Source: a virus (lineage: Duplodnaviria; Heunggongvirae; Uroviricota; Caudoviricetes). From it: DNA of 64,000 nt. Of this stretch, positions 1-61,532 are shown one piece after another (positions within the stretch are counted from its first letter, which is position 1; each line of letters opens with the position of its first letter). The DNA is taken from the IMG/VR virus record IMGVR_UViG_3300035701_007101; one strand, written 5' to 3'. The translations under genes were made by a program, and so were the position numbers. The notes beneath the pieces are model-generated. The model saw only the letters and a program-made list of their open reading frames with translations. It searched no databases and was not told the DNA's origin.

Positions 1-2160
1 TCTGGATCAATTACACCAGTTGAAAAAGAAAGAAAATTAAAACAAAATATTGAGTCTTTAAAGCAAAAGTTAAAAGAGCAGCAAAAAACATTAACAACAA
101 GCGAAAAAGTACATACTAAAGATGTCAGTCAATTAAGAAAAGAAATTGAAAAAATGAGGCAAAAAATGGAAAAGCCAACTGAAAAAGTTGTTGGTCATCC
201 ATTTACAAAAAAACCTGTTACTGATGAAATAAAAACTACAGAAAAAATAGATAAACCTGCTGCTGATGAAATTAAAGCTACGGAACAGCAGAAAGATGTT
301 CAAGAAAATCAAAATAAAAAACTACAACAAGTTGGCGATAAATCTAATGAACAATATCAAGAAACTTTAAAAACTGTTACGAAAAATGAGAAAAAACTTT
401 ATAGAGATGCTAGTTTTTTAAGTAATCCAGTGCCACCAGATCCTGAAAAAATTAAAACAATGCAGCTAGATCAAGCTAATTTAGAAAGAGCTGTAAAAGC
501 AATGGAGATTGGTGACGCAAAGATATCTGATGTAGTTAATAGTCCAAATGTTGTAACGTATAAAATAGATTTGTCAAATTTATCAGATATAGATAAAACA
601 AAGGCAATGAAAAAATTATTGTCATCAGATACAAAATCTATTTTTAGTCATTTTATTGGTAAAAAAGAAAATGTTATAATTGATGAAAATAGAGATACTG
701 ATACAATAGATGTTCATGTGCCAAAGGGTACTGAATTAAAGGATAGAGATCCTGTGTCGTTTAAGGAATTAGTGACAAATGACAAGTTTGTTAGTGCAGC
801 AAATGATGTAACAAAATTGCCAATTGCATTTGGTAAAAATGAAAATAATGAGACAATAATGTTTGATTTTAGCAAAACGCCGCATTTAATAGTTTCAGGA
901 GCTACTAAGTCTGGTAAGTCAGTATTCATTGAAAGTATTGCAAATTCAATTCAAATGGGCAAGTCTCCTGAAGATGTAAAAATGATATTAATTGATGTAG
1001 CTAAAAGAGGAACTGAGTTTGAACAGTTTAAAAATAGTGAATATTTAGATAGACCGATTGCAACTTCAGCTAAAGAAGCTGAAGAATCATTACAATCTTT
1101 GAATGATGAAGTAAATAGAAGAAATGATTTTTTAAAAAATGTTAGCGGCAAAACAGGAATGAGTTTTAGAAATATAGAAGATTGGAATTCATTTATTACA
1201 AAAAGTCCTGAGAAAATGAATGAAACTGAGAAAAAAGCATACGACACTATTCCTGAAGATCAAAGAAAAAAGATGCATAGAATTGTGACTATTGTTGATG
1301 AAGCTAAAGATTTATTTAATAAAGAAGTCAATCCAAATGCTGCTAAATTATTTGGTATGGTAGATCACATGTTAACTGTTGCAAGATCTGTCGGTGCTCA
1401 CATGGTTATTGCTTCTCAATCACCTGCAAAGCAAAATATACCAGGAAAAATACAGGCTAATATTGGTGCAAAAATGACTTTTAGATTACAAAATAAAAAT
1501 GATGCTGAAAATATTGGTGTGCCGGATGCAACTGATTTGTTAATGTATGGTGATGGTTATTTTGAAGATCCATTCTCTGGAGCAAAACCAACTAGATTGC
1601 AGACTGGTTTTATTGATAAAAGTGATGCTGCAAAAATAAATGAAAAGACGAAAGGTGATCAAAAATTTATTGAAAAAGCACCCAAAAAGGTTATGCCAAA
1701 ATATGAACCTACAACTGAGTCTACATCTGATTTCAAATTAAAAACTGAAGAAACTAGAAAACGTCTTGATGAGCAAAGGAAAAGAATTCAAGAAGATATT
1801 GCAAATTTAGAAAGAAAAAGAATTCAACAAGATCAAACTGAAAGTGAAAATAGACAAAAACGAGAAACTAGTGATCAAAAAAGACGCGAATTAGCACAGC
1901 AACAAGGTGATATTGAATCGAAAAAAGACTTAACGCCTGAAACAATTGAACCTTCAACTGAAACTACAACTGATGTTGCCGAACCTGAAACTGCAGATGA
2001 TGATTTGCAAAGGCAAATTGATGAATTAACTGTAGAAAAACCAGTTGATGAAGTTAAAAAACAAATGCAAAAACCAAAAGAAGAAAAACTTGAAGAAAAA
2101 CCGGTTCAAGAAAGAAAAAAAGGTCTTCTTGATAGAATTAAAAAATTTATAGGTAAATAA
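1..2160 (+). CDS. FtsK/SpoIIIE-family DNA translocase ATPase (5' partial; frame is open from nt 1 upstream of the first Met at 154)
   Basis: Walker A 'PHLIVSGATKSGKSVFIESIANS' followed by 'VKMILIDVAKRG' closely matches the FtsK motor core (PHLLIAGTTGSGKS...IMIDPK). Walker B 'IVTIVDEAKDLF'. Charged coiled-coil C-terminus. No stop between nt 1 and 154 in frame. Confidence 0.7.
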   Translation, partial: SGSITPVEKERKLKQNIESLKQKLKEQQKTLTTSEKVHTKDVSQLRKEIEKMRQKMEKPTEKVVGHPFTKKPVTDEIKTTEKIDKPAADEIKATEQQKDVQENQNKKLQQVGDKSNEQYQETLKTVTKNEKKLYRDASFLSNPVPPDPEKIKTMQLDQANLERAVKAMEIGDAKISDVVNSPNVVTYKIDLSNLSDIDKTKAMKKLLSSDTKSIFSHFIGKKENVIIDENRDTDTIDVHVPKGTELKDRDPVSFKELVTNDKFVSAANDVTKLPIAFGKNENNETIMFDFSKTPHLIVSGATKSGKSVFIESIANSIQMGKSPEDVKMILIDVAKRGTEFEQFKNSEYLDRPIATSAKEAEESLQSLNDEVNRRNDFLKNVSGKTGMSFRNIEDWNSFITKSPEKMNETEKKAYDTIPEDQRKKMHRIVTIVDEAKDLFNKEVNPNAAKLFGMVDHMLTVARSVGAHMVIASQSPAKQNIPGKIQANIGAKMTFRLQNKNDAENIGVPDATDLLMYGDGYFEDPFSGAKPTRLQTGFIDKSDAAKINEKTKGDQKFIEKAPKKVMPKYEPTTESTSDFKLKTEETRKRLDEQRKRIQEDIANLERKRIQQDQTESENRQKRETSDQKRRELAQQQGDIESKKDLTPETIEPSTETTTDVAEPETADDDLQRQIDELTVEKPVDEVKKQMQKPKEEKLEEKPVQERKKGLLDRIKKFIGK

Positions 2161-2601
2161 ATGGATCAAACAGCAATTATAAAACAATGTCCAAAAAAAG
2201 ATAAAGATTCAAGACCAAGTAATGAACAGAAGTTTTGTTTATATACTAGTGATGGTTCTAGATTGCTTGGTCGACATCCTTCAAAAGAAAAAGCTAGAAA
2301 TCAAGAAAAAGCAATTCAAAAACATAAACATGGCAAAATAATTAAACTTGAATTTTCTAAATTAGCTGTTGACTGGTGGAATGATTTGACCATTAAAGAG
2401 CAAAGAGAGTATTTAAGAAATCATCCAAAATCAATTTTAAGAGTAAGAAAAAGAGATGTTCCTGTTGGATCACTCCAATACTATAATGGTAGATATAGAC
2501 TATTGACGCATGATAGAGGTTGGATTTATTTTGATCCTGATGAAAAAGATGAATTAAAAGAAGAAAAAGCTAAAACTGACAAATTTTTAAATAGGGAGTA
2601 A
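2161..2601 (+). CDS. Small hypothetical protein, copy 1 of a paralogous 'WNDLxIxEQRxYLxxHPKS' family
   Basis: ORF start abuts the previous stop (TAAATG). Shares the motif 'WNDLTIKEQREYLRNHPKS' and 'GRHPS' with ORF 12288..12494. Confidence 0.45.
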   Translation: MDQTAIIKQCPKKDKDSRPSNEQKFCLYTSDGSRLLGRHPSKEKARNQEKAIQKHKHGKIIKLEFSKLAVDWWNDLTIKEQREYLRNHPKSILRVRKRDVPVGSLQYYNGRYRLLTHDRGWIYFDPDEKDELKEEKAKTDKFLNRE

Positions 2602-2605
2602 CTAA

Positions 2606-5500
2606 ATGTCAACAAATGATTATGGAACAACTGTTTCAAGAACATTACAGGCAGAATTCAGAGCGTTTGATACACTAGTCTTTAATGCTGGAAAGCCTGC
2701 GCTTGATTCAGAAATTAATTTGCTTTATGACATTGCTGCTGACAAACTTCAAAAATATATTCAATCTCAAATTCAATCTGGATTTTATAACAATGAGTTA
2801 TTTGCATTTGATGCTTCATGGTCTAATAAATTTCAATTACCAATTAGTACAGCTTTTGTTAATGGATTAAAAATTAACGTCAATGCTTATGGTGATCAAT
2901 TTATTTATTTGAATCCTGCGTCATTAGGCAATGGAAATCATAGATATGATTTTGTGTTTCTTGAAGTTTGGAAAACAATAATATCAGGTGAAACCACTGA
3001 ACATAAGCCGTCTTCAACAACTATTTATAAAGAAGGTAATGTACAAAATACGATTGAAACTTTGCCTGATGACATATATGATCCTGTTTTATTAACGATA
3101 GATCTTGAAACATCTAAACGTGTTCAAGTTCAATATAGGATTAGAATTCAAGAAGATACAACAACTCCAAATCAACAAAATTCTTCAATTTTTGATGGTA
3201 TAACTTTTGCACAGGGCGGTGCGTTAATACCTATTGATTCATTTACATTTATAAATTTAGGCGCATCAATTGGTGATTATGGTTTGTGGAGAGCAGGAAA
3301 TGGAGATAATGCTTCCAGATCACAGTTGCAAACTGTTGATGGATATGTGTATGCTATACCAATAGCATTAGTATTTAGAAGATCAATTGCTCCATATATT
3401 GATGAAGATCTTGGAGGACAATTTGCGTCTGACTTTGATATTGCTAGTGCATCATCAGATAGACCAGATGGATTATTTTATGATTCAGTTTGTGAAGATG
3501 ATGTAATTGATGTAAGACATAAAATAGCCATACAGCAATCTTATGATGATATATTAAGACTTACAGTACAAGATTTATTGACAGGACAAAATAAGACAAA
3601 AAGACCAATATCACTAAGATATGATGCACTAAGTGATGTTGCTATTACAGGGTATTCAATTCTCGGAAATGCAGACAAAACAAAGACGACAATAAGTGAT
3701 GTTCAAACTACTGTAGTTTCAAATGTAGTTAGAATAAATGTCGGTGACACAGATACATCTCAAGACTTTTATACAAGTAGAGCTTCTGGATCTTGGCAAA
3801 TTGGTGATACTATTACTATTAAAGTGCCTAATGGATCACCGTTAGGAACTTTAATTTTAGGAACTAATGATGCAAATGTAGCAACAAAGCCATTTGTATA
3901 TAAAAATGCAGTAGGTTTGACAAATGTGCTTGGTTCTTGGACTGGTACAGGAACTCCAATAGCATCATTTGCGATTAATGAAAATTTAGCAGGTCAAGAA
4001 TTATGGATTGTATATGATATTCAATATCCTGTAAATCAAGGATTATCATTTATTGCTGATGATATATTGAAAGTAAATTATGTAAATGCTGCATCATTTC
4101 CAATATCTCAAACAGCTTATGTGCCTCATAGCGGTATTGTTAGAGCTAGTTCAGATTTGTCAAATACATCTTTATATGTTTCAAGACATTCAAAACAGTT
4201 AAATTATACTCATACTGGCGCTGTAAATAGTTTTGCTTCAAATTATCAAATAAATAAACATAATAAAGAAATAAAAATTACGCCAATTGTTTCATCAACT
4301 ACAGTTGTTAGTGGTATTACAAGAACATTATATACTACAAATACTAATGCTACAACCAGAAAATTGTATTTGCCGTTTGCTACAAATAAAGTTTGGATGA
4401 TTAAAGGCGTTTATACTTCACAGTCTGGAATATCTCCGACAGATGATGTTGTTACAATTTCATTTTATGATCAACAGCCGTCAATAATTTCTGGTCAAGT
4501 ATTTAGACATCCAACGTCAGTAACTCAATATTCATTTGCAAAAATAACAGCTGTAGTTTTTGTGCCTACAAGTACTGATTTAATTGCTGCTGGTTATTCT
4601 CCTGTTTATAGACAAAGTTCAAATGGAAATATTGATCAGTTTGTTTTAGTTAATAGTAGTGGTGTTATTTATAATCCACCGTCTTCAAATCCAGTGGATT
4701 ATAAGTTAACGTATAAGAGTATACCAACTGTAAATGTAGCAGCATATACGACTAGTAGTAGTAGTCCAGTTGATAATTGGATTCAAGTTAGAGATGATGC
4801 TATTATTATTGATGGTCAGCAATTATGGATTGATATGGATTATATTGCAGAGCTTCATGATGGTGCTCAAACAAAAATAATATATAAGTATTTGCCATAT
4901 CAAGGTGTAGTTGATAGTACAGGTTTACAATTAAGTGCAGTGTTAAAGTCAATAACTGGACTAGTTCATACTGATGGGACAGGAAATGTTGGTATAAATA
5001 TTGATGTTAAGAAATATCCGAGAACATTAATTTCATATTTGCCGACTCAGAAGGATATTGAGTATTTATTGAAAGGAGACGCGATAAATGGAGTGGGCAA
5101 TATAGGAAAATTTAGTAGTACAGATTTATGTTATGCACTTACAAATTTATTAGATTATTCAGATTTACAACAAACAGCGATTAAGTTAAGTGACATTGTC
5201 ACTGCTCGTTATAATGATATGTTGAGTCAAATAGAACGCGGCGGAAATGAAGCAACTGCATTAAAGTCAGTAATGATTTTGCCATTGAATATAGCTAATT
5301 ATAAACAAGCAGTGGTTTTTGCATTAGGTGTTACAGCTGATGGATTTGCATTAAAGAATGAATTAGTATTATATGTATGGACATATACTAACAATGATGC
5401 TAGTAATATATTGACGTCAGCAGATGCAGATCATATTGGAGTAGATTTTTTCTTTATTAATCAAAGATTATTAACAAAAAAAGAGGGAAATTATGCTTAA
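2606..5500 (+). CDS. Large hypothetical protein (964 aa), possibly virion-structural; function unknown
   Basis: Long uninterrupted ORF, RBS GGGAG upstream, Ser/Thr/Asn-rich beta-type composition, no catalytic motifs recognised. Confidence 0.5.
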   Translation: MSTNDYGTTVSRTLQAEFRAFDTLVFNAGKPALDSEINLLYDIAADKLQKYIQSQIQSGFYNNELFAFDASWSNKFQLPISTAFVNGLKINVNAYGDQFIYLNPASLGNGNHRYDFVFLEVWKTIISGETTEHKPSSTTIYKEGNVQNTIETLPDDIYDPVLLTIDLETSKRVQVQYRIRIQEDTTTPNQQNSSIFDGITFAQGGALIPIDSFTFINLGASIGDYGLWRAGNGDNASRSQLQTVDGYVYAIPIALVFRRSIAPYIDEDLGGQFASDFDIASASSDRPDGLFYDSVCEDDVIDVRHKIAIQQSYDDILRLTVQDLLTGQNKTKRPISLRYDALSDVAITGYSILGNADKTKTTISDVQTTVVSNVVRINVGDTDTSQDFYTSRASGSWQIGDTITIKVPNGSPLGTLILGTNDANVATKPFVYKNAVGLTNVLGSWTGTGTPIASFAINENLAGQELWIVYDIQYPVNQGLSFIADDILKVNYVNAASFPISQTAYVPHSGIVRASSDLSNTSLYVSRHSKQLNYTHTGAVNSFASNYQINKHNKEIKITPIVSSTTVVSGITRTLYTTNTNATTRKLYLPFATNKVWMIKGVYTSQSGISPTDDVVTISFYDQQPSIISGQVFRHPTSVTQYSFAKITAVVFVPTSTDLIAAGYSPVYRQSSNGNIDQFVLVNSSGVIYNPPSSNPVDYKLTYKSIPTVNVAAYTTSSSSPVDNWIQVRDDAIIIDGQQLWIDMDYIAELHDGAQTKIIYKYLPYQGVVDSTGLQLSAVLKSITGLVHTDGTGNVGINIDVKKYPRTLISYLPTQKDIEYLLKGDAINGVGNIGKFSSTDLCYALTNLLDYSDLQQTAIKLSDIVTARYNDMLSQIERGGNEATALKSVMILPLNIANYKQAVVFALGVTADGFALKNELVLYVWTYTNNDASNILTSADADHIGVDFFFINQRLLTKKEGNYA

Positions 5501-6401
5501 ACTTTTAATTTATTATGGATGGTTAAGCGCGTTTAATTCTGGAGTTAATCAATGGAACAATGATTCAGTTGCTCATGATTTTGCAAAATATCAAATAATT
5601 GTTTTTGGTGATGGTATTGCAGATCCAAATCACAGTGATTATACTAATACAGTGTATGTAACTGCTAAAATTAAGCAATATAATCCAGAAACAAAAATAT
5701 TTGGATATGTTTCATCAAATCAAAATTATAGTTCATTTTGTGCAAAAGTAGATTTATTAGCTAATATATGTGTTGATGGTGTGTTCATGGATGAGTCTGG
5801 TTATGATTTTGGTGTCACAAGAGCTAACTTTAATCAAAAAGTCACATATATTAAGACAAAATTATATAGAGCATGTTTTGTAAATGCTTGGAATATTGAT
5901 CATGTGTTAGGTACCACTAATGATCCATCTTATCCAAATAGTGTTTATAATCCTGGATTAGCTGTTTCTAATTTAGAAATTGGTGATTGGTACACAGCTG
6001 AGTCATTTGTAGTAAATCCATCTTATCCAGGTGGATTTGCAACTGCTAGTGATTGGAAAACTAGAGGAGATAAAATAAAAAATTCTAGAAATACATATAG
6101 AATAAATGTTGCTGCTTCAGGTGTTATTGATAATAATGATATTAATGGTCAAAGTAAATCAGATTTTTCTTATCATGCAGCTTTAGGATATGAGTTTCAA
6201 GCACATGGAACTTCAGACATTAATTATGCAGCTAGTTCAGCTGCTGTGAAGATGTTTAATGATGCAATTAATGTTTATTGGAGAACAGGAACATCAATTG
6301 CTTGGACTAAATCAGGAAATATATATTATCGCAATGGGCAAAATCAGCAGCGCTTAAATTTAAATTTTAATACACAACAAAGTTATTTAACTACATATTA
6401 A
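5493..6401 (+). CDS. Hypothetical protein (possibly glycoside-hydrolase-like TIM-barrel; weak)
   Basis: ORF overlaps upstream gene by 8 nt (coupled). Asp/Glu-containing segments 'DGVFMDESGYDFG' reminiscent of GH-like families, not diagnostic. Confidence 0.4.
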   Translation: MLKLLIYYGWLSAFNSGVNQWNNDSVAHDFAKYQIIVFGDGIADPNHSDYTNTVYVTAKIKQYNPETKIFGYVSSNQNYSSFCAKVDLLANICVDGVFMDESGYDFGVTRANFNQKVTYIKTKLYRACFVNAWNIDHVLGTTNDPSYPNSVYNPGLAVSNLEIGDWYTAESFVVNPSYPGGFATASDWKTRGDKIKNSRNTYRINVAASGVIDNNDINGQSKSDFSYHAALGYEFQAHGTSDINYAASSAAVKMFNDAINVYWRTGTSIAWTKSGNIYYRNGQNQQRLNLNFNTQQSYLTTY

Positions 6402-6472
6402 AGTATATTTTTTCTTTATTAATCACAGATATAATAATATTAAAAAGAAAAACATTAAAACAAGGAGAATAT

Positions 6473-9400
6473 ATGTCAATTGATTTATCAGATCTGTTAG
6501 CAAAATTCTTACATGAACCTATTATAGTTACATCTACTAGAAGTCAACATGTAGATTTAGGAAAAACAGTTGCTTTAATTGTTGCAGCCATAGGTTGGCC
6601 ACAAATGACGTATCAATGGAAGAAAAATGGTGTTGTTATTACTGGCATTGATCATTGTGCATTATTACTTCTTAGGAAAGTATCTGTCATTGATGCTGGT
6701 GATTACACATGTACAGTGACAAACAAATATGGAAGTACTGTATCTCCTGTTTGTAGACTTGATGTTCATGCAATGCCGTTCGTACTTGTGCAGCCTGTTG
6801 CTGTTACTATCGATGAAGCAACTGCATTAACATTATCAGTTGTTGTAGCAGGATCATTACCAATATCATATCAATGGCAAAAGAATGGAATTGATATAAT
6901 TGGTGCAATATCTTCTACATATACAAAAGCTTCTTCAGAAGTTCAAGATACAGGCTTTTATTCATGTAAAGCTGTTAATCAATATGGACTTGTTACTAGC
7001 AAATCAGTTGCTGTTATAGTCAATCAAGTAGGTTTTGCTCCAAAAATTGATGTTCAACCTATAGGATCAAGCATTTTTGACGGTGGTAGTTTTTATTTAT
7101 CAGTTGTTGCATCTGGAACAATTCCGCTGTCATATCAATGGAAAAAGAATGGATCAATTATTACAGGAGCAATTGAAAATTTTTATGCTAAGAATGGTGC
7201 TGTAATGTCTGATTCTGGATCTTATACTTGTGTTGTTACTAATAACAATGGATCAGTTGAAAGCGTTGCTGCTGTTATATCAGTTGTAGGTGTTGCTCCA
7301 ATAATTGATGAACAACCTCAAGATGTTACTATTTATGACGGTGGAGACTTTTCTTTATCAGTCACAGTTCATGGAACAATTCCACTATCATATCAATGGA
7401 AGAAAAATGGTTCAATCATTGGTGGTGCAACAAGTGCAACATATATTAAAACTAATGCTGTAATGTCAGATTCTGGTTCTTATACTTGTGTTGTTACAAA
7501 TGTTATCGCATCTACTGAAACAATAGCTGTTGCTGTTGTAGTTCAAGGCGTAATTCCTGTAATTGACACTCAACCTCAGGATGTTACTATTTATGATGGT
7601 GGAGACTTTTCTTTATCAGTTACAGCTCATGGAACTTCTCCATTGTCATATCAATGGACAAAGAATAATGTTGATATTGGCGGTGCAACTAGTTCAACGT
7701 TTACTAAATCTCCGGCTGGAATGACTGACACTGCATCTTATGCTTGTATTGTGTCAAATATAGCTGGATCGACTTCAACTGATGAAGTTATTGTAACAGT
7801 TCAGGGCGTTGTTCCAATAATTGATGAACAACCACAGAATGTTACTATTTATGATGGTGGAAATTTTTCTTTATCAGTTACAGCTCATGGAACTTCTCCA
7901 TTGTCATATCAATGGAAAAAGAATAATATTGATATTGGTGGTGCAACTAATTCAACTTATTCTAAAGTTGGAGCGCTAATTAGTGATTCTGCACATTATG
8001 TTTGCGAAGTTTCAAATATTATTGGAACTACTAGAACTAATATTGCTGTTGTTACAGTTCAAGCTATTGTTCCGACGATTCAAGTACAGCCTAAAGATGT
8101 AACAATTGATGATAATGAAATTTTTACATTGACTATTGCTGCTACTGGAACGTTACCTTTATTGTATCAATGGAAGAAAAATGATATTGATATTCTGGGT
8201 GCAAATAGTGCGATATATTCTAAAGTTAGTGTCATGAGTGATTTAGGATCTTACACTTGTGTTGTTACAAATGCAGGAGGGTCTATAACTAGTGATGCCG
8301 CTGCAGTAGTAGTAGTAGGAGTTGCGGCTGAAGTTGTTAGCATTGAACCAGACAGTGTAGCAATTGTTGACGGTGAAAATTTTACTTTGACTGTTGCTGC
8401 TATAGGAACTCCTGTATTAACATATCAATGGAAGAAAGGTTTGTCAAATATTCCAGGTGCAACATTATCAGTCTATAATAAAGTTGGCGCTTTAATGACA
8501 GATTCAGGATCTTATACTTGTGTTGTTACAAATGATTATGGCACAGACACTAGTGCAGCTGTCATTGTGGCAGTAGCAGGTATTGCGCCAGTAATTGATG
8601 ATCAACCTCAGGGTGTTTCAATTGTTGACGGTGAAGATTTTACTTTATCAATTACAGCTCATGGAACAATTCCATTAGCATATCAATGGAAAAAAGGTGG
8701 TGTTGTTATTGAAGGAGCAACTAATTCAACTTATTCTAAAGTCTGCGCTTTAATAACAGATTCAGGATCTTATACTTGTGTTGTTACAAATGTAGTTGAT
8801 TCTATTACAAGCAGCGCAGCTATAGTGACTGTTGCAGGAATTGCTCCAGTAATTATGTCAATGACAGGTCCTCAAGGTAATGAAGTGTGGCAAGATATTG
8901 GAACAGCTTTTACGATAATTTTAGTTGCTGCAGGAACTGAACCGCTGTCTTATCAATGGAGAGTTGATTTTACAGGAACTGAAAATGATGATGGTTTAGG
9001 AATTAGAGATATTGTTGGAGCAATTGATACAGTTTATTCAGTAACTAATGCACAAAAAACTGTTTCAGGATTTTATTCTTGTAAAGTGACAAATGTATTT
9101 GGTGTGGCAACGAGTTATTCAATGCTAGTCAATATTGGTCAAGTACCAATGGTAATTAGCAATCCTGAAAATGTTACAGTTGATGAAAGACAATCTTTTC
9201 AGTTAGTAAGTCAAGCAAGAGGAGCATTTTTAAAGTTTCAATGGACAATAAATAGTTTACCAGTAGGCTCATTTGAATCAGTTACGCTTGATGGTCATGC
9301 GATTTTTACAAAACAAGCAGAAGTTTCAGATTTTGGTGTTTACAGTTGCAGATTCGTTAGTTGTTTAGAAAATGGCGATATTCCTGTAGATGCAAAATAT

Positions 9401-10624
9401 GCTTATAGTAAAGCTGTAATTGTATTAGTAACTGAAATTGGATTTGCTCCTGAAATTACTATTCAACCAGTCGGTGTTCAAATTCCTAAACCTGGTGTTG
9501 TAATTACTGGTGGTCAAACAGGCATTGCTGAAGTCGGTACTGTTCAACAAACAATAGCTATGTCTTCACTTGGTGATTATCAAACAATTTTTTCTAATAG
9601 TAACTATGCTCAGTTTTCATCAAATTTTGGAGCTACATGGGTAGCAAGACGTATTGGTCCATATTGGAATCAGTCTGTTAGTGTGTCTGGCAGTGGACAA
9701 TATCAGACGTCTTTTGCTACTGAAGGACGAGGACTGTATGTTTCAGCTAATTATGGTGTAAGTTGGGCGCTGAAAACAACAACTGAAGTAACGAATCCAT
9801 ATATTAGATCTAGTTCAATGGACAATTCTGGACAATATCAATTGGTATTGAATGAAATTTATGGTACTGCAGGAGCTTGGTTATCCAGAGATTATGGAAA
9901 TACTTGGACTAAAGTTGTAGCTCAAGGTGGGTGGGGTGCAACTGCTATATCTGCTAATGGTCAATATATGGCTGTAGCTTTAGCTGCTGTTGGATTTTGG
10001 AGGTCTACTGATTATGGCATAACTTGGACAAAACTTGTCAATTCTCCCTCATATAATGCGTACCAATTTAGAAGTCTTGCATTATCTTATGATGGAAGGA
10101 TTTGGTATTGGGTGGGTCAAAACAGTAATGTATTTGCATCTTCTGATTACGGTGCATCTTTTTATGTTCATTCAGCTTCACCGGCTGGTATAACGTGGTT
10201 ACGTCTTAGATGTTCTATTGATGGTAAAGTCATAGTTGGTGCTGCTGCAGGTCGTCCAATTTATTTTTCAAGAGATTATGGTGCAACATACAATATATTG
10301 CCAGGTTCTGAAGGTAAAGAATGGTCTGATATTGCAATATCAGCTGATGGTTCGAGAATAACTGGTGTAATGACAAATGCTAACATATATGTGTTTACTA
10401 TTTATGAAAGCCCGATTTCATTTACAGTCAGCTTAACTGTTATTGGAACTCCTCCATTATCATATCAATGGGAAAAAGAAGGAATAATTGTTCCTGATGC
10501 AACACAATATTTTTATTACAAGAATTCAGCTCAACCTTCTGATCTTGGTAATTACACTTGTGTTGTAACAAATAATTATGGTGAAATTGAAAGTGATATT
10601 GCAAGAGTTGAAATGGTTCCATAG
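6473..10624 (+). CDS. Giant surface/adhesin-like protein: about 13 tandem Ig-like (I-set-type) domains + BNR/Asp-box beta-propeller + terminal Ig domain
   Basis: 'SYQWKKNG...' followed by 'YTCVVTN..GS' recurs about every 90 aa, 13-14 times (I-set Ig signature). C-terminal region carries repeated Asp-box motifs S-x-D-x-G-x-T-W ('SRDYGNTWTKV','STDYGITWTKL','SANYGVSWAL','SSDYGASF','SRDYGATYN'). Strong RBS AAGGAGAATATATG. Ends with TAG followed by a terminator hairpin. Confidence 0.8.
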   Translation: MSIDLSDLLAKFLHEPIIVTSTRSQHVDLGKTVALIVAAIGWPQMTYQWKKNGVVITGIDHCALLLLRKVSVIDAGDYTCTVTNKYGSTVSPVCRLDVHAMPFVLVQPVAVTIDEATALTLSVVVAGSLPISYQWQKNGIDIIGAISSTYTKASSEVQDTGFYSCKAVNQYGLVTSKSVAVIVNQVGFAPKIDVQPIGSSIFDGGSFYLSVVASGTIPLSYQWKKNGSIITGAIENFYAKNGAVMSDSGSYTCVVTNNNGSVESVAAVISVVGVAPIIDEQPQDVTIYDGGDFSLSVTVHGTIPLSYQWKKNGSIIGGATSATYIKTNAVMSDSGSYTCVVTNVIASTETIAVAVVVQGVIPVIDTQPQDVTIYDGGDFSLSVTAHGTSPLSYQWTKNNVDIGGATSSTFTKSPAGMTDTASYACIVSNIAGSTSTDEVIVTVQGVVPIIDEQPQNVTIYDGGNFSLSVTAHGTSPLSYQWKKNNIDIGGATNSTYSKVGALISDSAHYVCEVSNIIGTTRTNIAVVTVQAIVPTIQVQPKDVTIDDNEIFTLTIAATGTLPLLYQWKKNDIDILGANSAIYSKVSVMSDLGSYTCVVTNAGGSITSDAAAVVVVGVAAEVVSIEPDSVAIVDGENFTLTVAAIGTPVLTYQWKKGLSNIPGATLSVYNKVGALMTDSGSYTCVVTNDYGTDTSAAVIVAVAGIAPVIDDQPQGVSIVDGEDFTLSITAHGTIPLAYQWKKGGVVIEGATNSTYSKVCALITDSGSYTCVVTNVVDSITSSAAIVTVAGIAPVIMSMTGPQGNEVWQDIGTAFTIILVAAGTEPLSYQWRVDFTGTENDDGLGIRDIVGAIDTVYSVTNAQKTVSGFYSCKVTNVFGVATSYSMLVNIGQVPMVISNPENVTVDERQSFQLVSQARGAFLKFQWTINSLPVGSFESVTLDGHAIFTKQAEVSDFGVYSCRFVSCLENGDIPVDAKYAYSKAVIVLVTEIGFAPEITIQPVGVQIPKPGVVITGGQTGIAEVGTVQQTIAMSSLGDYQTIFSNSNYAQFSSNFGATWVARRIGPYWNQSVSVSGSGQYQTSFATEGRGLYVSANYGVSWALKTTTEVTNPYIRSSSMDNSGQYQLVLNEIYGTAGAWLSRDYGNTWTKVVAQGGWGATAISANGQYMAVALAAVGFWRSTDYGITWTKLVNSPSYNAYQFRSLALSYDGRIWYWVGQNSNVFASSDYGASFYVHSASPAGITWLRLRCSIDGKVIVGAAAGRPIYFSRDYGATYNILPGSEGKEWSDIAISADGSRITGVMTNANIYVFTIYESPISFTVSLTVIGTPPLSYQWEKEGIIVPDATQYFYYKNSAQPSDLGNYTCVVTNNYGEIESDIARVEMVP

Positions 10625-10650
10625 TTATTTGAAGATTTGTAGAAATAATA

Positions 10651-10680
10651 AAAGTCAGTAAGAAATTACTGACTTTTTTA
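10651..10680 (+). terminator. Rho-independent terminator downstream of the Ig-like protein gene
   Basis: AGTCAGTAA-gaaa-TTACTGACT perfect 9-bp stem followed by a T5 run. Confidence 0.6.
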
Positions 10681-10754
10681 TTGTAAAATAACTATTATAC
10701 AAGACATAGAATAGCATTAAACAAAACAATGGTTTTAAAAATGACTATTATCTT

Positions 10755-12230
10755 ATGCTATCATTAGAAGTTGGTAATGTTAATATTAAACTAATTGGCA
10801 ATATAGACAATTTAACAATTCAAAAATTGTTTGAAGTTATGACATATAAAACCATTGAATTCAATGGTTTTAATTTTATTGAATTACAACACAATTTATT
10901 CAACAAATTAAAACAATCATTTCCGACTGGGCTTTTTTCGAAGGCTGCGGACATATTAGAAGAATTAGATGTAAAATATGATATCGTTGATAAAAGACAA
11001 CATTTCAAAATAAATCAACCTCTTAAATTGCATGATCCAAAAGATCCTCAAAAAAATGCACAACTCAGAGATTACCAAAAAGAAATTGCTAAACTAGCAG
11101 TTGAAGCTCAAAGATTTGTAATTCAAGTTGCTACTGGTGGTGGAAAAACAGTTATTGCTGCTGCTATACTTGCTGAATTAAACGTGCCTTCAATATTTGT
11201 AGTACACACTGGTGATTTATTTGAACAAGCACATGAAGAATTGAGTAAAATGTTAAATATACCAATTGGCAAAATTGGTGGAGGTGAATGTGACATACAA
11301 AAGATTAATGTATGCATGATCCAAACAATTCATTCAGTTTTAAATAAAAAGTATATACCCTTTGATGAAGATGAAAAAGAATTAATGGAACATGATGAAA
11401 TCGTAAAAAAGAGTTTCATTAAAAATGATAAAATTAAAAAATTTATTCAATCAGTCTCGTGCATACTAGTAGATGAAGTTCATCATCTTTCTTCTCGTAC
11501 TTACATTGAAACAATGAAAACATGCACATCTGCATTTTGGCGAGGAGGAATGTCAGCAACACCACACTCAGGTCAGGAAAAAGATATGATTTTGCAAGCT
11601 TATGCTGGTAAAATAATTTGTAGAATAACTGCTTCATATTTAATAAAGAGACATTTTTTAGTAAAACCAAAAATTTATTATTTGTTAGGAACAAAAAGCG
11701 GCAAATACAAATTTAGTAGAAAAAGATATAATGCTATCTATAAAGAATTCATAATCAACAATACATATAGAAATGAATTAATTTCAGATTGTGTAAGTAG
11801 ATTAAAATCACTAAATAAGTCTGTGTTAATAACTGTTACAACTAAAAATCATGGTCAAAAATTACTGAAAATTATTCAGGGTCTTGAAAATACATCAGTT
11901 CAATTCATTTGTAGTCATGTTAATAAAATGGTAAGAAAAGAATATTTGAATCAGATTAGAAATAAAGAATTAGATGTTATAATAGCAACACAACTTGCAG
12001 ATGAAGGTCTTGACTTGCCTGCACTTGATTCATTAATATTAGCTGGTGCAGGCAAGTCACCAACAAGAATGATTCAAAGAATAGGTAGAGTATTACGAAT
12101 ATATCCCGGTAAAGAAGATGCAATAGTTATTGATTTTAAAGATAGTGCAAGATATTTAGCAGGTCATTATAAGAAAAGACGCGAAATGTGCGAAAAAGAA
12201 TCAGAGTTCGAGATTATCGAGAATTTATAA
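10755..12230 (+). CDS. Superfamily-2 DNA/RNA helicase (DEAH/DExH; UvsW / type III res-like)
   Basis: Motif I 'QVATGGGKT', motif II 'VDEVHH', motif III 'SATP', motif VI 'QRIGRVLR'. Confidence 0.7.
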   Translation: MLSLEVGNVNIKLIGNIDNLTIQKLFEVMTYKTIEFNGFNFIELQHNLFNKLKQSFPTGLFSKAADILEELDVKYDIVDKRQHFKINQPLKLHDPKDPQKNAQLRDYQKEIAKLAVEAQRFVIQVATGGGKTVIAAAILAELNVPSIFVVHTGDLFEQAHEELSKMLNIPIGKIGGGECDIQKINVCMIQTIHSVLNKKYIPFDEDEKELMEHDEIVKKSFIKNDKIKKFIQSVSCILVDEVHHLSSRTYIETMKTCTSAFWRGGMSATPHSGQEKDMILQAYAGKIICRITASYLIKRHFLVKPKIYYLLGTKSGKYKFSRKRYNAIYKEFIINNTYRNELISDCVSRLKSLNKSVLITVTTKNHGQKLLKIIQGLENTSVQFICSHVNKMVRKEYLNQIRNKELDVIIATQLADEGLDLPALDSLILAGAGKSPTRMIQRIGRVLRIYPGKEDAIVIDFKDSARYLAGHYKKRREMCEKESEFEIIENL

Positions 12231-12287
12231 TTGCGACATAAATATATGTCAAAAATAGTAGGAACTATTTGAATTAAAGGAAAAATA

Positions 12288-12494
12288 ATGAAGCATTTAT
12301 CTGCAATTCAGACCGAATTTTTAAAAGAAGCTCGAAAGTGGAATGATTTGTCGATTGAGCAACAAAGAACTTATTTAAAGAAGCATCCAAAAAGTAAGAA
12401 AAAAATTAATGCAAAAGATTTTATGAAAGATTTTTCTCATGATGAACAAGTTATGTATTTAGGGCGACATCCAAGACTTAAAAAACATATTTAA
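12288..12494 (+). CDS. Small hypothetical protein, copy 2 of the 'HPKS' family
   Basis: 'RKWNDLSIEQQRTYLKKHPKSKKK' and 'GRHPRLKKH' parallel ORF 2161..2601. RBS AAAGGAAAAATAATG. Confidence 0.45.
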   Translation: MKHLSAIQTEFLKEARKWNDLSIEQQRTYLKKHPKSKKKINAKDFMKDFSHDEQVMYLGRHPRLKKHI

Positions 12495-12516
12495 TGTTGT
12501 AACATACATATTTGTA

Positions 12517-12545
12517 AAAAGGCTCATTTTTAAGAGCTTTTTTTA
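12517..12545 (+). terminator. Putative terminator hairpin
   Basis: AAGGCTC-atttttaa-GAGCTTT stem (one G-T pair) followed by a T run. Confidence 0.35.
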
Positions 12546-15818: not shown

Positions 15819-16472
15819 ATGTCTACAAGTGTTATTGAAGAGTTGTATTATAAATTATACAATGCTGTGCTTCTTGGAAATATTAATGATTCAAGAATAT
15901 ATTTGGATTTGCTTAGAGATGAGTATGCTACGTGTGAAAAAGATTTTGAAATATTAAATGATGGCAGATTTGATCATTTACAACAATTAAGTATTGCAGT
16001 TGAACAAGGTCTAACTATAAAAAATTTCAATTATAAAGATGACTATGTTGATACTACTAATAAAGATGATGACCAGTTTATCACAGAAAAAGAATTAGTC
16101 GTTAGAATTTGCAAAGGTAATGAATTAAAAAAACTACTCAAGGCGTCTGACAACTTTTATATCTATAATATGGAGCATCCTACAAGATATGGCAAAATAG
16201 ATATTGTTGCTCAAGATAATTTAACAACTTATATTATTGAAACGAAAAAAAGTCATGCACATTATTCGGTCATTAGTCAGATTGATAAATATTTATTAGA
16301 TGTTAAATTGAAATTGAATTTAAAACATTACACTAAAGTTATTGGCATTGTAATAGCAAATGGCTATATTGGTAACGTGACTCAGGAATTAGTAAAACTT
16401 GGAGTGATACCAGTTAAATATATGATAATGAATGATGATTTAAAACTTAGTCTAATGATCAAGGAGATGTAA
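15819..16472 (+). CDS. Putative PD-(D/E)xK-fold nuclease-like protein
   Basis: 'GKIDIVAQD...TYIIETKK' fits the D...(D/E)xK arrangement. Weak. Confidence 0.35.
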   Translation: MSTSVIEELYYKLYNAVLLGNINDSRIYLDLLRDEYATCEKDFEILNDGRFDHLQQLSIAVEQGLTIKNFNYKDDYVDTTNKDDDQFITEKELVVRICKGNELKKLLKASDNFYIYNMEHPTRYGKIDIVAQDNLTTYIIETKKSHAHYSVISQIDKYLLDVKLKLNLKHYTKVIGIVIANGYIGNVTQELVKLGVIPVKYMIMNDDLKLSLMIKEM

Positions 16473-17770
16473 TGGAAATTAAATTAAAAAGACTAGCAAC
16501 ACCACATAAACTAAAATTTGTCGAAGATGCAGAAAGTGTAAAAAAACTTATTGATGAATGTTATGAAAAAGTAAAACCACAAATTATTGTAAATGGTTTT
16601 CGTAAAGGTAATGTACCTCGAGATGTAGCTGAAAAACAACCACATTTTGATAAATACAGAGTATATCAAACAATATTTGACATTTTATATAAAAAAGCAG
16701 TTGAACAACAAGGTCTTAAAATTGTTGATGCTAGTAATTTTGAAGTTATGGGTGCGTTTGAATATGGTGAATCATTGTCAATGCAAGCAACAGTTTATTT
16801 AAAGCCAACTGTGATAAAGTTTAATATTGATGATGTTAAAGTTTCAAGAGCTGATACAGTCATAACTCAGCAAATGGTTGACGATCAAATTAATGTATTG
16901 CAAAATACAAAAGCAATATTTACAAATGTTATTGATGTTGATTACAAGGCTAAAAAAGGTGATGTTCTTATAATTGACTTTGCAGGTAAATGTGAAGGAA
17001 AAGCATTTGCTGGAGGAACAGCTAATAATTTTAGGTATGTCATTGGTGAAACAAGATTTATTGAAGGCTTTGAAGAACAAATACTCAATATTAAACTGAA
17101 TGAGACAAATGTTGTTAAAGTGACATTTCCCGAAACATATCATGAAAAATCATTAAAAGGTAAGGCAGCTGAGTTTACAGTAACAGTACGAAAAATTGAC
17201 TCTAAAACTGTTAGATCAATTGAAGAAATGGCTGCTGCTGAGAATAAGTCTATTGAAGAATATAGAAAGTTTGTTTTTGATAAATTGGTTGAAGATTATA
17301 AGAAAATTGATGATGAACGATATGAGGCAGATGTTTTATCTCAGTGTGTTCTTATTGCTGAGATTCAACCAATACCAGATTCAATGGTAGAATATGAATT
17401 AGCAAATGAATGGAATCAATTGTTATATAGAATGAGTATGTCTGAAGAAGAATTTTTGAAAAAGAATAAGAGTGGTAAAGATGTATTTTATGCGCAAAAA
17501 AGATTGAGAGTCGAAAAAGCTCTTGAAATTAAGATGTTTTTAGATCATATTTGTGAAAAGTATAATATTACTGCGTCAGAAGAAGAAGTGCAGAAATTAT
17601 TTGACGACAGATTTACAAAGCTTAATAAAACTGAAGAAGAGAAAACTGAAATTAAAAATAATCTTAAGAAAAAACAAAATTATTCTGCAGGTGAAATGGC
17701 AGTTAAGCACGAAAAAGCAACGAAATTGTTAGTTAAATCAGTAAAAAATATTGACGATTATGCAAGCTGA
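16472..17770 (+). CDS. tig: Trigger factor-like ribosome-associated chaperone / PPIase
   Basis: N-terminal 'NGFRKGNVPRDVAEKQ' matches the trigger-factor ribosome-binding signature (GFRKGKVP). Central FKBP-type domain 'DFAGKCEGKAFAGGTANNFRYVIGETRFIEGFEEQILNIKLNETNVVKVTFPETYHEKSLKGKAAEFTVTV' matches the TF PPIase core. Length 432 aa as in bacterial Tig. Confidence 0.7.
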   Translation: MEIKLKRLATPHKLKFVEDAESVKKLIDECYEKVKPQIIVNGFRKGNVPRDVAEKQPHFDKYRVYQTIFDILYKKAVEQQGLKIVDASNFEVMGAFEYGESLSMQATVYLKPTVIKFNIDDVKVSRADTVITQQMVDDQINVLQNTKAIFTNVIDVDYKAKKGDVLIIDFAGKCEGKAFAGGTANNFRYVIGETRFIEGFEEQILNIKLNETNVVKVTFPETYHEKSLKGKAAEFTVTVRKIDSKTVRSIEEMAAAENKSIEEYRKFVFDKLVEDYKKIDDERYEADVLSQCVLIAEIQPIPDSMVEYELANEWNQLLYRMSMSEEEFLKKNKSGKDVFYAQKRLRVEKALEIKMFLDHICEKYNITASEEEVQKLFDDRFTKLNKTEEEKTEIKNNLKKKQNYSAGEMAVKHEKATKLLVKSVKNIDDYAS

Positions 17771-23586: not shown

Positions 23587-24753
23587 ATGAAAGCAATTTA
23601 TGCATTTTCGGGTGATCCAATAACATTTGGTCACATTGATATTATAGAAAGAGCTGCTAAGGTTTTTACAAAAGTGTTAGTTTGTATTGGCAGTAATCCA
23701 GATAAAAAGTATATGTTTACACTTGAACAAAGATTGCAAATGGCCCAAGATGCATTGTCGTCAATTAAAAATGTTGACGTCAAATCTTTTTCAGGATTGC
23801 TTGTTGACTTTGCTTTTGAGCAAAACATTTCAGTTATAATAAAAGGTGTTAGAAATACTACAGATTTTGAATATGAAAATACTCTTCATGCTGTAGGCGA
23901 AAGTCAAAAATTAGGTATTGAAACATTTATATTGTTTGCAAAACCACAATTGGCTCATGTTAGCTCTAGTACAGTTAAGTCAATTCAAAAAGAACATGGC
24001 TTTATTCATGAATATGTTACATTGAATGTTAAAGAAGCTTTAGAGAAGCAGATGTCAAAACAGCTTATTATTGGTGTGACTGGTGAAATTGCTGCTGGAA
24101 AATCGTATGTAACTGATGCATTAGTTAGTTTGCTGGATAAGTCAAAAATTGAAGCTCATAATATTGATTTAGATATTATTGCACATGAAATATTAGGTAG
24201 TTTAAAATTGCCTCAATATGTTGAAGTTAGACACAAAATATCTGCTAGATTTGGTGAAACCATTAAGGATCTTTATGATTCTATTAATAGAAAAAAATTA
24301 GGAGCAATAGTGTTTAAGGATTCAAATGCTCTTAAAGATTTAAATGACATAATGAGAGATTCAATACTTGTAAGAATTAAAAGAGAATTAAATAACAAAG
24401 AAGGCATTATCTTTTTGAATGCTGCTTTACTTGTAGAAGCAGGTATGACAGATTTATGTAATAATAATGTGATTTTAGTTAAGTGTGACAAAGTTGTTCA
24501 GAGATCACGTCTTTACAAACGAGGCCTTTCAACTGTTCAATTAAATAAACGATTAAAATCTCAATATTCTTATGATGAAAAGAAAGCAGTTCTTGCTGAG
24601 AGAATAAGAGAACATAACAAATATACAGGTAATATATTTATTGTAGATACTTCAAAAAATGACTCTGACATTATAAATACTGCTAAATTATTATCAAATT
24701 TGCAAAGCGGTGATTCTAAAGGATTGTGGAAAAACAAATTTTTGACTTTATAA
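23587..24753 (+). CDS. Bifunctional phosphopantetheine adenylyltransferase / dephospho-CoA kinase (CoaD-CoaE fusion)
   Basis: N-terminal 'KAIYAFSGDPITFGHIDIIERA' is the PPAT (CoaD) signature (GTFDPIT.GH..I.ERA). C-terminal half has the P-loop 'IIGVTGEIAAGKSYV' and 'NIDLDIIAHE' typical of DPCK (CoaE). Confidence 0.7.
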   Translation: MKAIYAFSGDPITFGHIDIIERAAKVFTKVLVCIGSNPDKKYMFTLEQRLQMAQDALSSIKNVDVKSFSGLLVDFAFEQNISVIIKGVRNTTDFEYENTLHAVGESQKLGIETFILFAKPQLAHVSSSTVKSIQKEHGFIHEYVTLNVKEALEKQMSKQLIIGVTGEIAAGKSYVTDALVSLLDKSKIEAHNIDLDIIAHEILGSLKLPQYVEVRHKISARFGETIKDLYDSINRKKLGAIVFKDSNALKDLNDIMRDSILVRIKRELNNKEGIIFLNAALLVEAGMTDLCNNNVILVKCDKVVQRSRLYKRGLSTVQLNKRLKSQYSYDEKKAVLAERIREHNKYTGNIFIVDTSKNDSDIINTAKLLSNLQSGDSKGLWKNKFLTL

Positions 24754-24824
24754 CCCTCTATAACTCAGTGGTAGAGTGGCGTTCTCTAAAAATGCTGTCA
24801 TCAGTTCAAATCTGATTAGAGGGA
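24754..24824 (+). tRNA. Suppressor tRNA, anticodon CUA (reads UAG amber)
   Basis: Manual cloverleaf fold. Acceptor CCCTCTA/TAGAGGG (7 bp), U8, D-stem ACTC/GAGT with loop AGTGGTA, anticodon stem GCGTT/AATGC, loop C-U-CUA-A-A (anticodon at 24786-24788), variable 4 nt, T-arm ATCAG-TTCAAAT-CTGAT, discriminator A. No encoded CCA. Confidence 0.8.
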
Positions 24825-39296: not shown

Positions 39297-39369
39297 AGAA
39301 AATTTGCTCAATTGGTAGAGCGAAAGATTTAGGATCTTTACGTTGTTGGTTCAAATCCGACATTTTCAT
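39297..39369 (+). tRNA. tRNA with anticodon UAG (Leu codon CUA/CUG by standard rules) but class-I (short variable arm) structure; A1-A72 mismatch
   Basis: Manual fold. Acceptor AGAAAAT/ATTTTCA (6 bp plus 1-72 mismatch), D-arm GCTC-AATTGGTA-GAGC, anticodon stem AAAGA/TCTTT with loop UU-UAG-GA, variable 5 nt, T-arm GTTGG-TTCAAAT-CCGAC. Confidence 0.5.
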
Positions 39370-39604
39370 CCAAACGTTTTATTCAATTTCGCCCTTCTTT
39401 TAATAAAAATTCTGTTGATACATGAGGTTAAACTCATGGTTTTAAAGGGTGCTGGTGAAAAGTCATGATTCCTCCTCGCCCTTTATTTTAAAGGTATAAA
39501 AATTATGAAAATGACAACGAACTTCACTTTTAATTGTAGCAGTTGCTTTAATAGTAGCAACTCAGTGAGGTTCATTTTCTAATTATTCCATTATAGAACA
39601 ACTA

Positions 39605-39643
39605 GAAAAAAGGGCCTCACCTAAAAAATGAGGCCCTTTTTTT
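39605..39643. terminator. Strong bidirectional terminator hairpin
   Basis: GGGCCTCA-cctaaaaaa-TGAGGCCC flanked by an A run 5' and a T run 3'. Confidence 0.55.
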
Positions 39644-40241: not shown

Positions 40242-40252
40242 TTTGAAATCAT

Positions 40253-61160: not shown

Positions 61161-61177
61161 TATTATCCTTATGCTTT

Positions 61178-61510: not shown

Positions 61511-61532
61511 AATTTAGATCTCATCATTAACA

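Follow-up and report, generated by a model that had tools for sequence, protein, structure and literature searches.

A 64,000-nucleotide stretch of the IMG/VR virus record IMGVR_UViG_3300035701_007101 (Caudoviricetes), referred to in its whole length as the window, encodes a 1383-amino-acid (aa) protein in which eleven tandem immunoglobulin (Ig) domains are followed by a predicted seven-bladed Asp-box β-propeller and a twelfth Ig domain. Its open reading frame (ORF) spans 6473..10624 on the plus strand, including the terminal TAG. We favor, at a probability of about 0.5, the reading that this Ig-propeller protein is an accessory fiber or adhesin on the virion surface of a huge (jumbo-type) phage, where we infer the virion location, the anchoring end, and what kind of ligand is bound. 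It has been proposed that Ig-domain proteins on phage particles keep phages longer on surfaces where hosts live, and in the bacteriophage adherence to mucus (BAM) model, capsid Ig proteins provide weak, multivalent adherence to mucus and glycans. Such decoration proteins are generally dispensable. To our knowledge, few Ig proteins of phage particles have been characterized, and those are short (3 to 4 domains).

The identical Ig-propeller protein is encoded on two separately assembled JGI contigs, both of which align to window positions 1-12227 at 99.967% identity with zero gaps. An assembly collapse or expansion behind the repeat count was rejected, given three gap-free, near-identical assemblies with no length variation among them. 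Structure prediction and a check of the assembly had been set beforehand in an earlier note made from the DNA letters alone; the Ig and propeller folds were supported, and the repeats are identical across assemblies.

The Ig rod comprises 12 domains of a phage/prokaryote type

Pfam scans of the protein match Ig_3 (E = 1.1e-96; 317.9 bits, cutoff 30) and I-set (E = 3e-75; 248.8 bits, cutoff 23.7), each over 10 stretches, and the hallmarks [YF]QW and Y-x-C occur 12 times apiece. A hidden Markov model (HMM) made from the protein's own units reports exactly 12 significant domains, of which eleven fall within aa 15-989 and the last covers aa 1299-1383. The earlier note had described a long array of about 13 Ig domains with a final one capping the protein; the array and the cap hold, and the count comes down to 12 (11 N-terminal, 1 C-terminal). 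Units 3 to 9 keep a strict 86-aa (258-bp) period, and Tandem Repeats Finder returns a period of 258 at 7028-8063. At the DNA level, the units are 49-78% identical to one another, and the longest exact repeat, between units 5 and 6, is 52 bp.

Ig10 to Ig12 are all beta in AlphaFold2 model 2, which was computed from an alignment enlarged by the orthologs and by Ig units of the protein itself; their predicted local distance difference test (pLDDT) values lie mostly at 65-93, and the first strand of Ig12 runs on from the last propeller strand. The central units probably share the Ig beta-sandwich fold, to judge from their 36-46% identity to the solved Ig domains of phage Sf14 gp20.

The B-strand Cys of the canonical B-F disulfide is absent from all 12 units, and 12 of the protein's 17 Cys residues are those of the Y-x-C hallmark. 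The best PDB sequence matches of the Ig units are two phage virion proteins, 9ncf_S (E = 5e-65) and 9c2d_S (E = 1e-54), with titin far behind (4.8e-26). Two PHROG families of "Hoc-like head decoration" proteins, phrog_4069 (6.4e-109) and phrog_2973 (1.9e-92), also match, and all PHROG and PDB matches of the Ig array are restricted to its Ig parts. At E<=1e-60, the array matches 1525 proteins, many of them bacterial or archaeal "immunoglobulin domain-containing proteins" (median of 16 units in the top hits); the nearest relatives of the Ig units, however, come from phages and not from cells. Giant Ig proteins of bacteria and archaea (Methanothrix, Planctomycetota, Ignavibacteriae, and others) resemble the window protein in their long Ig_3/I-set arrays (30-41% identity); unlike it, they are cellular and carry other terminal modules, and this propeller occurs in only 2 of the 118 top hits, both from the phage family described here. 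By sequence, then, the Ig units are of a phage/prokaryote type, and since this type is abundant in phages, bacteria, and archaea and lacks the B-strand Cys, the label "eukaryote-style" that had been given to it does not stand.

Among characterized proteins, the units are closest to those of Sf14 gp20 (9C2D/9C3A chain S), which cryo-electron microscopy (cryo-EM) identified as a Hoc-like capsid decoration protein in which three Ig domains come after a capsid-binding domain at the N terminus, and whose homologs vary in Ig number (PMC11821841); its GenBank label is "putative tail protein." The window protein has the same Ig type (SYQWKKxG ... GSYTCVVTN, with the F-strand Cys only) as gp20 and the Ig-repeat proteins of the Ounavirinae (Mooglevirus/FelixO1-like), and it shares with gp20 tandem Ig units, a variable Ig number, and accessory status. 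The matches to gp20 cover residues 125-372 only, that is, three consecutive units at 36-46% identity. Whereas gp20 has 3 Ig domains after a 124-aa capsid-binding domain, the window protein has 12 and a propeller before the last. T4 Hoc is likewise an Ig-domain rod on a nonessential phage protein, proposed to serve in adherence or environment sensing; however, its Ig similarity is weak (24-28% identity, E>=4e-6), and it consists of 3 Ig domains plus 1 anchor domain and has no propeller. We found no counterpart of the capsid-binding regions of gp20 (residues 1-124) and Hoc (about 286-376) in the protein or the window using BLASTP and tBLASTN (best E about 1.3-1.5).

A strict Hoc-like capsid decoration would place one copy of the protein at capsid hexamer centers, with the rod pointing outward to adhere weakly and multivalently to mucus or glycans, and would call for a new anchor, e.g., the C-terminal propeller plus Ig12, the anchor of T4 Hoc also being C-terminal. 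The relationship to cryo-EM-verified gp20, the PHROG matches, the dispensability of the gene among relatives, and the variable Ig count also seen in gp20 homologs speak for this model. We consider it unlikely, as both known capsid-binding domains are absent from protein and window, the PHROG and PDB similarity stops at the Ig parts, and T4 Hoc itself is only a weak match. In addition, propeller similarity does not follow the phage backbone (see below), which is unexpected of a capsid anchor, the gene adjoins a fiber-like gene rather than capsid genes, and a mucosal habitat is without support. Thus, the comparison with Hoc-type proteins made in the earlier note is apt for the gp20-like Ig units and fails for the capsid-binding domains.

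A compact seven-bladed propeller precedes the last Ig domain

A regular-expression search for S-x-[DN]-x-G-x-[ST]-[WFY] located six Asp-boxes at aa 1049, 1091, 1138, 1178, 1223, and 1266, spaced 40-47 aa apart. AlphaFold2 predicted aa ~1010-1312 as all beta, with seven four-stranded blades and pLDDT values of 80-95; the strand pattern suggests that the N-terminal strand 1010-1018 probably closes blade 7. This confident model, together with the six motifs, bears out the Asp-box propeller of at least five repeats read from the sequence earlier. The best structural matches are 7-bladed propellers of compact, WD40-like size, over which about 280 of 303 residues align, and no sialidase was present among the top 50 or 60 structural matches. 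Scanned alone, the propeller scores 30.2 bits for BNR_6 (cutoff 27) and 33.4 bits for Sortilin-Vps10 (cutoff 33), a borderline match that covers only profile positions 3-61 of 446. Its PDB sequence matches are GH74 xyloglucanases (2cn2, 2.8e-6) and, faintly, SorCS2, with the similarity confined to the Asp-box stretches. Propeller homologs are labeled Sortilin-Vps10, BNR_6, BNR, and PSII_BNR ("photosystem II stability/assembly factor-like"), and BNR_2 (PF13088) in 1 of 31. Pfam scans of the whole protein and of the propeller alone gave no BNR_2 match, and the R[IVL]P motif (F/YRIP in sialidases) occurs nowhere in the protein.

Asp-boxes are structural hairpins, "highly unlikely to be involved in ligand binding," and occur in propellers with 6 (GH33/58), 7 (GH74, YP_299179.1), and 10 (Vps10) blades; in the known Asp-box glycosidases, ligand-binding and catalytic residues lie in top-face loop 2-3, the variable top face being the functional one (Quistgaard and Thirup, PMC2716378). 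Like the Sortilin-Vps10, GH74, and Ycf48-type propellers, the window propeller carries its Asp-boxes in the 3-4 loops, one in each of six blades out of seven, and it has the seven blades of the GH74 domain and of YP_299179.1 (PDB 3b7f). It differs in being single, compact, and set between Ig domains, and a catalytic signature was not found in it. Three assignments were rejected: a sialidase (GH33/GH58), since there are seven blades rather than six and neither an RIP motif nor BNR_2; a Vps10 domain, which has ten blades plus 10CC modules against seven in the model; and a GH74 xyloglucanase, which has two propellers in tandem, not a single minimal one with ~42 aa per blade. The "sialidase-like" wording of the first description is therefore replaced by a relationship to Sortilin-Vps10, BNR_6, and GH74 types, and the case corrects a misannotation that is easily made: Asp-box repeats do not mean sialidase.

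We also weighed whether the propeller could act as a glycoside hydrolase (GH33/GH58 or GH74 like) on host capsule or mucin, with the Ig rod as a carbohydrate-binding or spacer arm. Glycosidases make up most of the Asp-box propellers with a characterized structure (PMC2716378), xyloglucanases of GH74 are the best PDB sequence matches, and the family of the adjoining 302-aa protein is weakly Spherulin4/glycosidase like. Even so, an enzymatic role appears very improbable. The RIP motif is lacking, BNR_2 is found in a single relative, and GH74 enzymes have two tandem 7-bladed propellers (PMC2716378), whereas only one is present here. The short blades and short top loops would leave little space for an elaborate active site, and the top face is poorly conserved (27% invariant; see below), the opposite of what a catalytic site would lead one to expect.

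The propeller family is large, with 7127 representatives at E<=1e-3 and at least 141 loci in IMG/VR, many of them on giant-virus metagenome-assembled genomes (MAGs) and large phage contigs. Related propellers occur in viral proteins of structural type, namely a Peptidase_S74 fiber protein (P0002) and BFVD entries labeled "baseplate wedge initiator" and "BNR repeat domain protein." Giant multipropeller proteins from giant-virus MAGs and 100-290-kb phage contigs have propellers of the same family (27-39% identity) and are likewise very large viral proteins; they differ in carrying one to many propellers, and none of 84 propeller-bearing ORFs at IMG/VR loci has the present Ig type. Within the 150 best propeller relatives and the 118 best Ig arrays, an Ig array was joined to this propeller in a single family, which consists of the window protein, its fragments P0001 and P0181, and the orthologs P0041, P0042, and P0259; two other propeller relatives among the 150 bear one Ig match each. 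Searches of 50,697 phage records gave no match to the gene by megablast or to the propeller by tBLASTN. A scan of IMG/VR with the single propeller-plus-Ig12 sequence returned nothing, and the alignment-based scan yielded the 141 distant relatives and zero orthologs. A scan of metagenome contigs with the propeller alignment gave 70 pattern hits, 0 of them confirmed.

Orthologs differ in Ig number and occupy a variable slot

P0041 is 65% identical to the window protein and has 12 Ig domains that correspond one to one with the window units. P0042 (887 aa) has 6: the N terminus, Ig1 to Ig3, Ig10 and Ig11, the propeller, and the last Ig are kept, and six central units are missing. It sits in the same slot in two independent SRA assemblies, with flanking genes 87-89% identical to those of the window. 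P0259 (905 aa, 6 Ig domains) is collinear with P0042 and lies in a different neighborhood. All four diverged versions are intact ORFs at 42-65% identity. Syntenic orthologs, the flanking genes of which are 85-89% identical, thus have 12, 12, and 6 Ig domains, as anticipated by the proposal of length variation at the repeats. A further Ig_3/I-set protein (582 aa, about 5 Ig domains; L091, 4934-6682) is encoded directly after P0259, which suggests that this phage has paralogous Ig-fiber genes.

In a tree of units, the central unit of P0042 groups with unit 3 (52% bootstrap) and is an outgroup to units 3 to 9, the topology that a late expansion would predict, in 0 of 300 bootstraps. The unit tree favors a deletion as the origin of the 12-versus-6 difference, a call that P0259 and the mosaic segment trees weaken. 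Because the units are 49-78% identical and share an exact repeat of 52 bp at most, in-register unequal recombination between them appears feasible but is not strongly favored.

The slot is bordered on the left by a gene for a 964-aa conserved huge-phage protein and on the right by a DEAD/ResIII helicase gene (Table 1). The slot lacks the Ig-propeller gene in L092, L093, L094, and L095, relatives with ~960-aa orthologs of 56-71% identity (71, 67, 63, and 56%). What occupies it there is a 67-aa ORF, a TnpB/Cas12f-like gene along with others, or an ORF of 90 aa, and in one case it is empty. L094 comes from the same sample as the gene-bearing L002. The backbone is kept throughout: a ~2150-aa giant, small ORFs, and genes for FtsK-like, ~960-aa, DEAD helicase, DnaC/DnaB, trigger factor, and Cas4-like proteins. 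Its absence from these less closely related phages marks the Ig-propeller gene as an accessory cassette and the slot as a variable hotspot. Across the window phage, L007, L009, and L092 to L095, the hotspot (6402-10754 in the window) contains the 302-aa gene together with either a 12-Ig or a 6-Ig gene, a 12-Ig gene by itself, small ORFs, a TnpB/Cas12f1-like gene (L093, 12073-13167), or nothing. The window phage and L007 have the 302-aa gene beside the Ig-propeller gene. In L009, by contrast, the gene for P0041 comes right after the ~960-aa gene (88% identity), and no 302-aa gene intervenes. A 306-aa ORF in L009 is the contig-truncated end of that ~960-aa gene.

The propeller evolves out of step with the phage backbone

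Between the window phage and L007, dS (synonymous substitutions per synonymous site) is similar along the locus (0.5-0.9). The ratio of nonsynonymous to synonymous rates (dN/dS) is 0.08-0.12 for the four flanking genes and 0.19-0.77 within the Ig-propeller gene, where Ig11, the linker, and the propeller have the highest values; these are crude Nei-Gojobori estimates, with dS near saturation. In the three orthologs compared, the top-face loops of the propeller (2-3 and 4-1) are 27% invariant versus 63% for loops 1-2 and 3-4, the bottom and Asp-box loops (Fisher P = 7.5e-6), and propeller indels among three orthologs fall in top-face loops or at the N-terminal edge.

Identity also varies by segment. 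With W denoting the window protein, A P0041, B P0042, and C P0259, identity over the N terminus and Ig1-2 tracks the backbone (W-B, 0.70; A-B, 0.69; W-A, 0.60; versus 0.42-0.46 to C). In Ig10-11, W groups with A (0.72). In the propeller, A, B, and C group together (0.64-0.73), with W apart (0.51-0.55). Propeller identity is thus uncoupled from the backbone: W and B are at 0.52 despite 87-89% identical backbones, while B and C are at 0.73 in different contexts. Such uncoupling is easier to reconcile with a module facing an external ligand than with a virion anchor, and the mosaic segments point to intragenic exchange or episodic change.

These data bear as well on a role outside the virion. The gene could be a moron derived from a cellular giant Ig adhesin and expressed during infection, with effects within the infected cell or at its surface (e.g., cell aggregation, exclusion of superinfecting phages, or host-factor binding), or it could be decaying cargo. 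In one relative, the variable hotspot around it contains a TnpB/Cas12f-like mobile gene, its right-hand neighbors are replication genes, such Ig arrays are very common in surface proteins of bacteria and archaea, and its dN/dS is relatively high. We regard this explanation as quite improbable. Neither a signal peptide (mean Kyte-Doolittle value of 0.3 across the first 25 aa) nor a convincing transmembrane helix that could serve export was found in the 1383-aa protein, whose most hydrophobic windows fall in Ig strands and whose net charge is about -40. Moreover, the ORF is intact in four versions, dN/dS is below 1 throughout, and the gene has a strong Shine-Dalgarno sequence and its own terminator; the gene is therefore maintained by selection. 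Its closest Ig relatives are from phages rather than cells, and in three phages it is always co-oriented with, and downstream of, the fiber-like ~960-aa gene.

A proposed accessory fiber with an exchangeable head

We favor the reading of the Ig-propeller protein as an accessory virion-surface fiber, which would work as follows. Lacking a signal peptide and having Ig units that would not depend on disulfides, the protein would be made in the cytoplasm. Its probable point of attachment to the virion is the N-terminal end (short peptide plus Ig1-2), which may sit beside, or be mounted through, the fiber-like 964-aa protein. The eleven tandem Ig domains would form a semirigid spacer of roughly 45 nm, taking about 4 nm per I-set domain, and would carry the compact propeller near the distal end, between Ig11 and Ig12. 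An N-terminal anchor and a distal head are proposed because the identity of Ig1-2 tracks the backbone and that of the propeller does not. The propeller's top face (loops 2-3 and 4-1) would be the ligand surface, the ligand most plausibly being a glycan or protein of the host or matrix surface. Binding would raise the rate of productive encounters, as has been proposed for Hoc-type Ig proteins, but with a dedicated head. The reach of the fiber may be set by gain and loss of 86-aa units in Ig3 to Ig9 through in-register unequal recombination (12 versus 6 in sister phages), and segments of the gene may be swapped between phages.

The fiber-like look of the 964-aa protein comes from an N terminus that is conserved and a C terminus that is variable across homologs. 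Its N terminus resembles gp247 of Tunturi_5, a "tail fiber protein," and gp211 of phage G; in Tunturi_5, the homolog lies in the tail module and is followed by giant β-propeller (RCC1) proteins. The 964-aa protein has no sequence match in Pfam, PHROG, or the PDB, and we found no support in the literature searched for phage G gp211 as a virion protein.

Several observations weigh against the accessory-fiber reading. The Tunturi_5 "tail fiber" label is itself computational (Phold), and the 64-kb window contains no recognized capsid or tail gene, the Ig-propeller gene lying beside replication genes. Neither a recognizable anchor domain, such as the capsid-binding domains of gp20 and Hoc, nor a recognized fiber domain was found in the Ig-propeller protein. 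The propeller is the best-conserved segment among P0041, P0042, and P0259, which would also suit a conserved structural role. As dN/dS remains below 1, relaxed constraint explains the fast evolution as well as diversifying selection does, and since top-face loops vary freely in any propeller, their variability is no proof of ligand binding.

Should the reading hold, the protein may represent an undescribed kind of accessory fiber, with an anchor other than that of the known Hoc-type proteins, an exchangeable lectin-like propeller head, and the Ig3-Ig9 block as a length regulator, such that reach and specificity would be tuned independently; we put this forward only tentatively. The combination of modules is new, and both module types are well known, so that the protein is a modular scaffold of familiar parts and introduces no new principle. 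Related huge phages with a 12-Ig gene, a 6-Ig gene, or no gene in one slot, and with diverged propeller heads, form a natural comparison set in which the effect of rod length and the role of the head in binding or adsorption become testable. The gene is a candidate determinant of habitat or host range in this uncultured group of huge phages.

Genomic neighborhood and additional observations

The positions of the gene, its parts, and the slot borders are given in Table 1.

TABLE 1 Coordinates in the window of the Ig-propeller gene, its parts, and its neighbors
Feature	Position	Strand	Basis or remark
964-aa conserved huge-phage protein, left slot border	2606..5500	+	893 homologs, contigs up to 466 kb
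302-aa upstream partner gene	5493..6401	+	Homologs score PF12138 (Spherulin4, glycoside-hydrolase-like) weakly, E = 1.8e-4 and 5e-3
Shine-Dalgarno sequence AAGGAG	6462..6467	+	5 nt before ATG; read from sequence
Whole gene, 1383-aa Ig-array/Asp-box propeller protein	6473..10624	+	Pfam Ig_3 and I-set; two JGI contigs encode the identical protein
Short acidic N-terminal peptide, aa 1-14, MSIDLSDLLAKFLH	6473..6514	+	Similar in P0041 and P0042, not P0259; candidate attachment peptide
Ig1 and Ig2, aa 15-186, diverged from central block	6515..7030	+	Unit HMM
Ig3 to Ig9, aa 189-790, homogeneous block of seven 86-aa units	7037..8842	+	Number varies between orthologs
Ig10 and Ig11, aa 794-989, longer, diverged, with loop insertions	8852..9439	+	HMM; all beta in model 2, pLDDT about 50-83
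Predicted seven-bladed Asp-box β-propeller, aa about 1010-1312	9500..10408	+	AlphaFold2, DSSP
Asp-box span	9617..10291	+	nt 9617-9640, 9743-9766, 9884-9907, 10004-10027, 10139-10162, 10268-10291
Ig12, C-terminal, aa about 1300-1383	10370..10621	+	HMM domain 1299-1383, 107 bits; pLDDT 75-93 in model 2
Intrinsic-terminator-like hairpin closing the transcription unit	10650..10677	+	12-bp stem and T-run
DEAD/ResIII helicase gene, conserved right slot border	10755..12230	+	Pfam, PHROG, synteny

The window has a GC content of ~30% and encodes an FtsK-like ATPase, several helicases, DnaC- and DnaB-like proteins, NAD ligase, trigger factor, UvsX, UvsY, gp32-like proteins, a DnaE-type polymerase, and six tRNAs. 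Relatives of the 964-aa protein lie on contigs of 335-466 kb, and a relative of the 302-aa protein lies on a 411.6-kb IMG/VR contig. The source is an uncultured huge phage. Two homologs of the 964-aa protein, P0305 and P0341, are labeled at NCBI as belonging to Nitrosarchaeum and Nanoarchaeia MAGs; their contigs are probably phage sequences misbinned into these MAGs.

The Spherulin4-like family of the 302-aa neighbor hints at a glycan context, the neighbor gene itself not being constant. In the phage on the 411.6-kb contig, the 302-aa domain is fused into two tandem ~665-aa paralogs (L005, 9482-13495), possibly depolymerase-type proteins.

Downstream of the TAG that ends the Ig-propeller gene, the frame reads LFEDL-TAG-K-TAA and is followed by the hairpin. 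TAG recoding as a change to the extent of the gene was rejected, as read-through would add 8 codons and reading TAG as sense joins no ORFs of the window. TAG is the stop of 6 of the 37 large ORFs of the window, and nothing within the window points to recoding; structural genes elsewhere in the genome might differ. At 24754-24824 (+), directly after the ORF at 23587..24753, the window encodes a CUA-anticodon tRNA (amber suppressor; tRNA-Pyl according to ARAGORN).

Beyond the slot, an indel separates the window from the otherwise 99.97% identical JGI contigs: window positions 12227-12537 (~310 bp) correspond to ~1050 bp in these contigs (15755-16807 in L001), where genes for 77 and 202 aa are called. 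A full-length trigger factor (Trigger_N, FKBP_C, Trigger_C) is encoded at 16472-17770 (+), and one is found in the same position in L094 and L095. The conserved ~2150-aa giant, which matches Fn3_assoc and CHB_HEX_C_1 and is encoded upstream of where the window starts, precedes the FtsK-like gene in all relatives (L001, 1-1074; L007, 1-2144; L092 to L095) and may be another large surface or structural protein.

The DnaE-like polymerase seems to be split at 58074-63885 (-): the ORF at 63001-63885 corresponds to positions 264-440 of phrog_405, and that at 58074-61160 to positions 649-1048. Between the two parts lie ORFs at 61533-62162 and 62141-62923 (RNA-ligase-like), and the arrangement could reflect an insertion or a naturally split gene. 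A 1090-aa ORF at 45499-48771 (-) has radical-SAM-like and glycosyltransferase-like regions by weak PHROG hits. Finally, a tRNA cluster at 39297-41659 (Leu, Phe, Asn, Ser, and Cys) contains an embedded 380-aa HNH-endonuclease-like ORF at 40489-41631, which overlaps tRNA-Cys (41586-41659).

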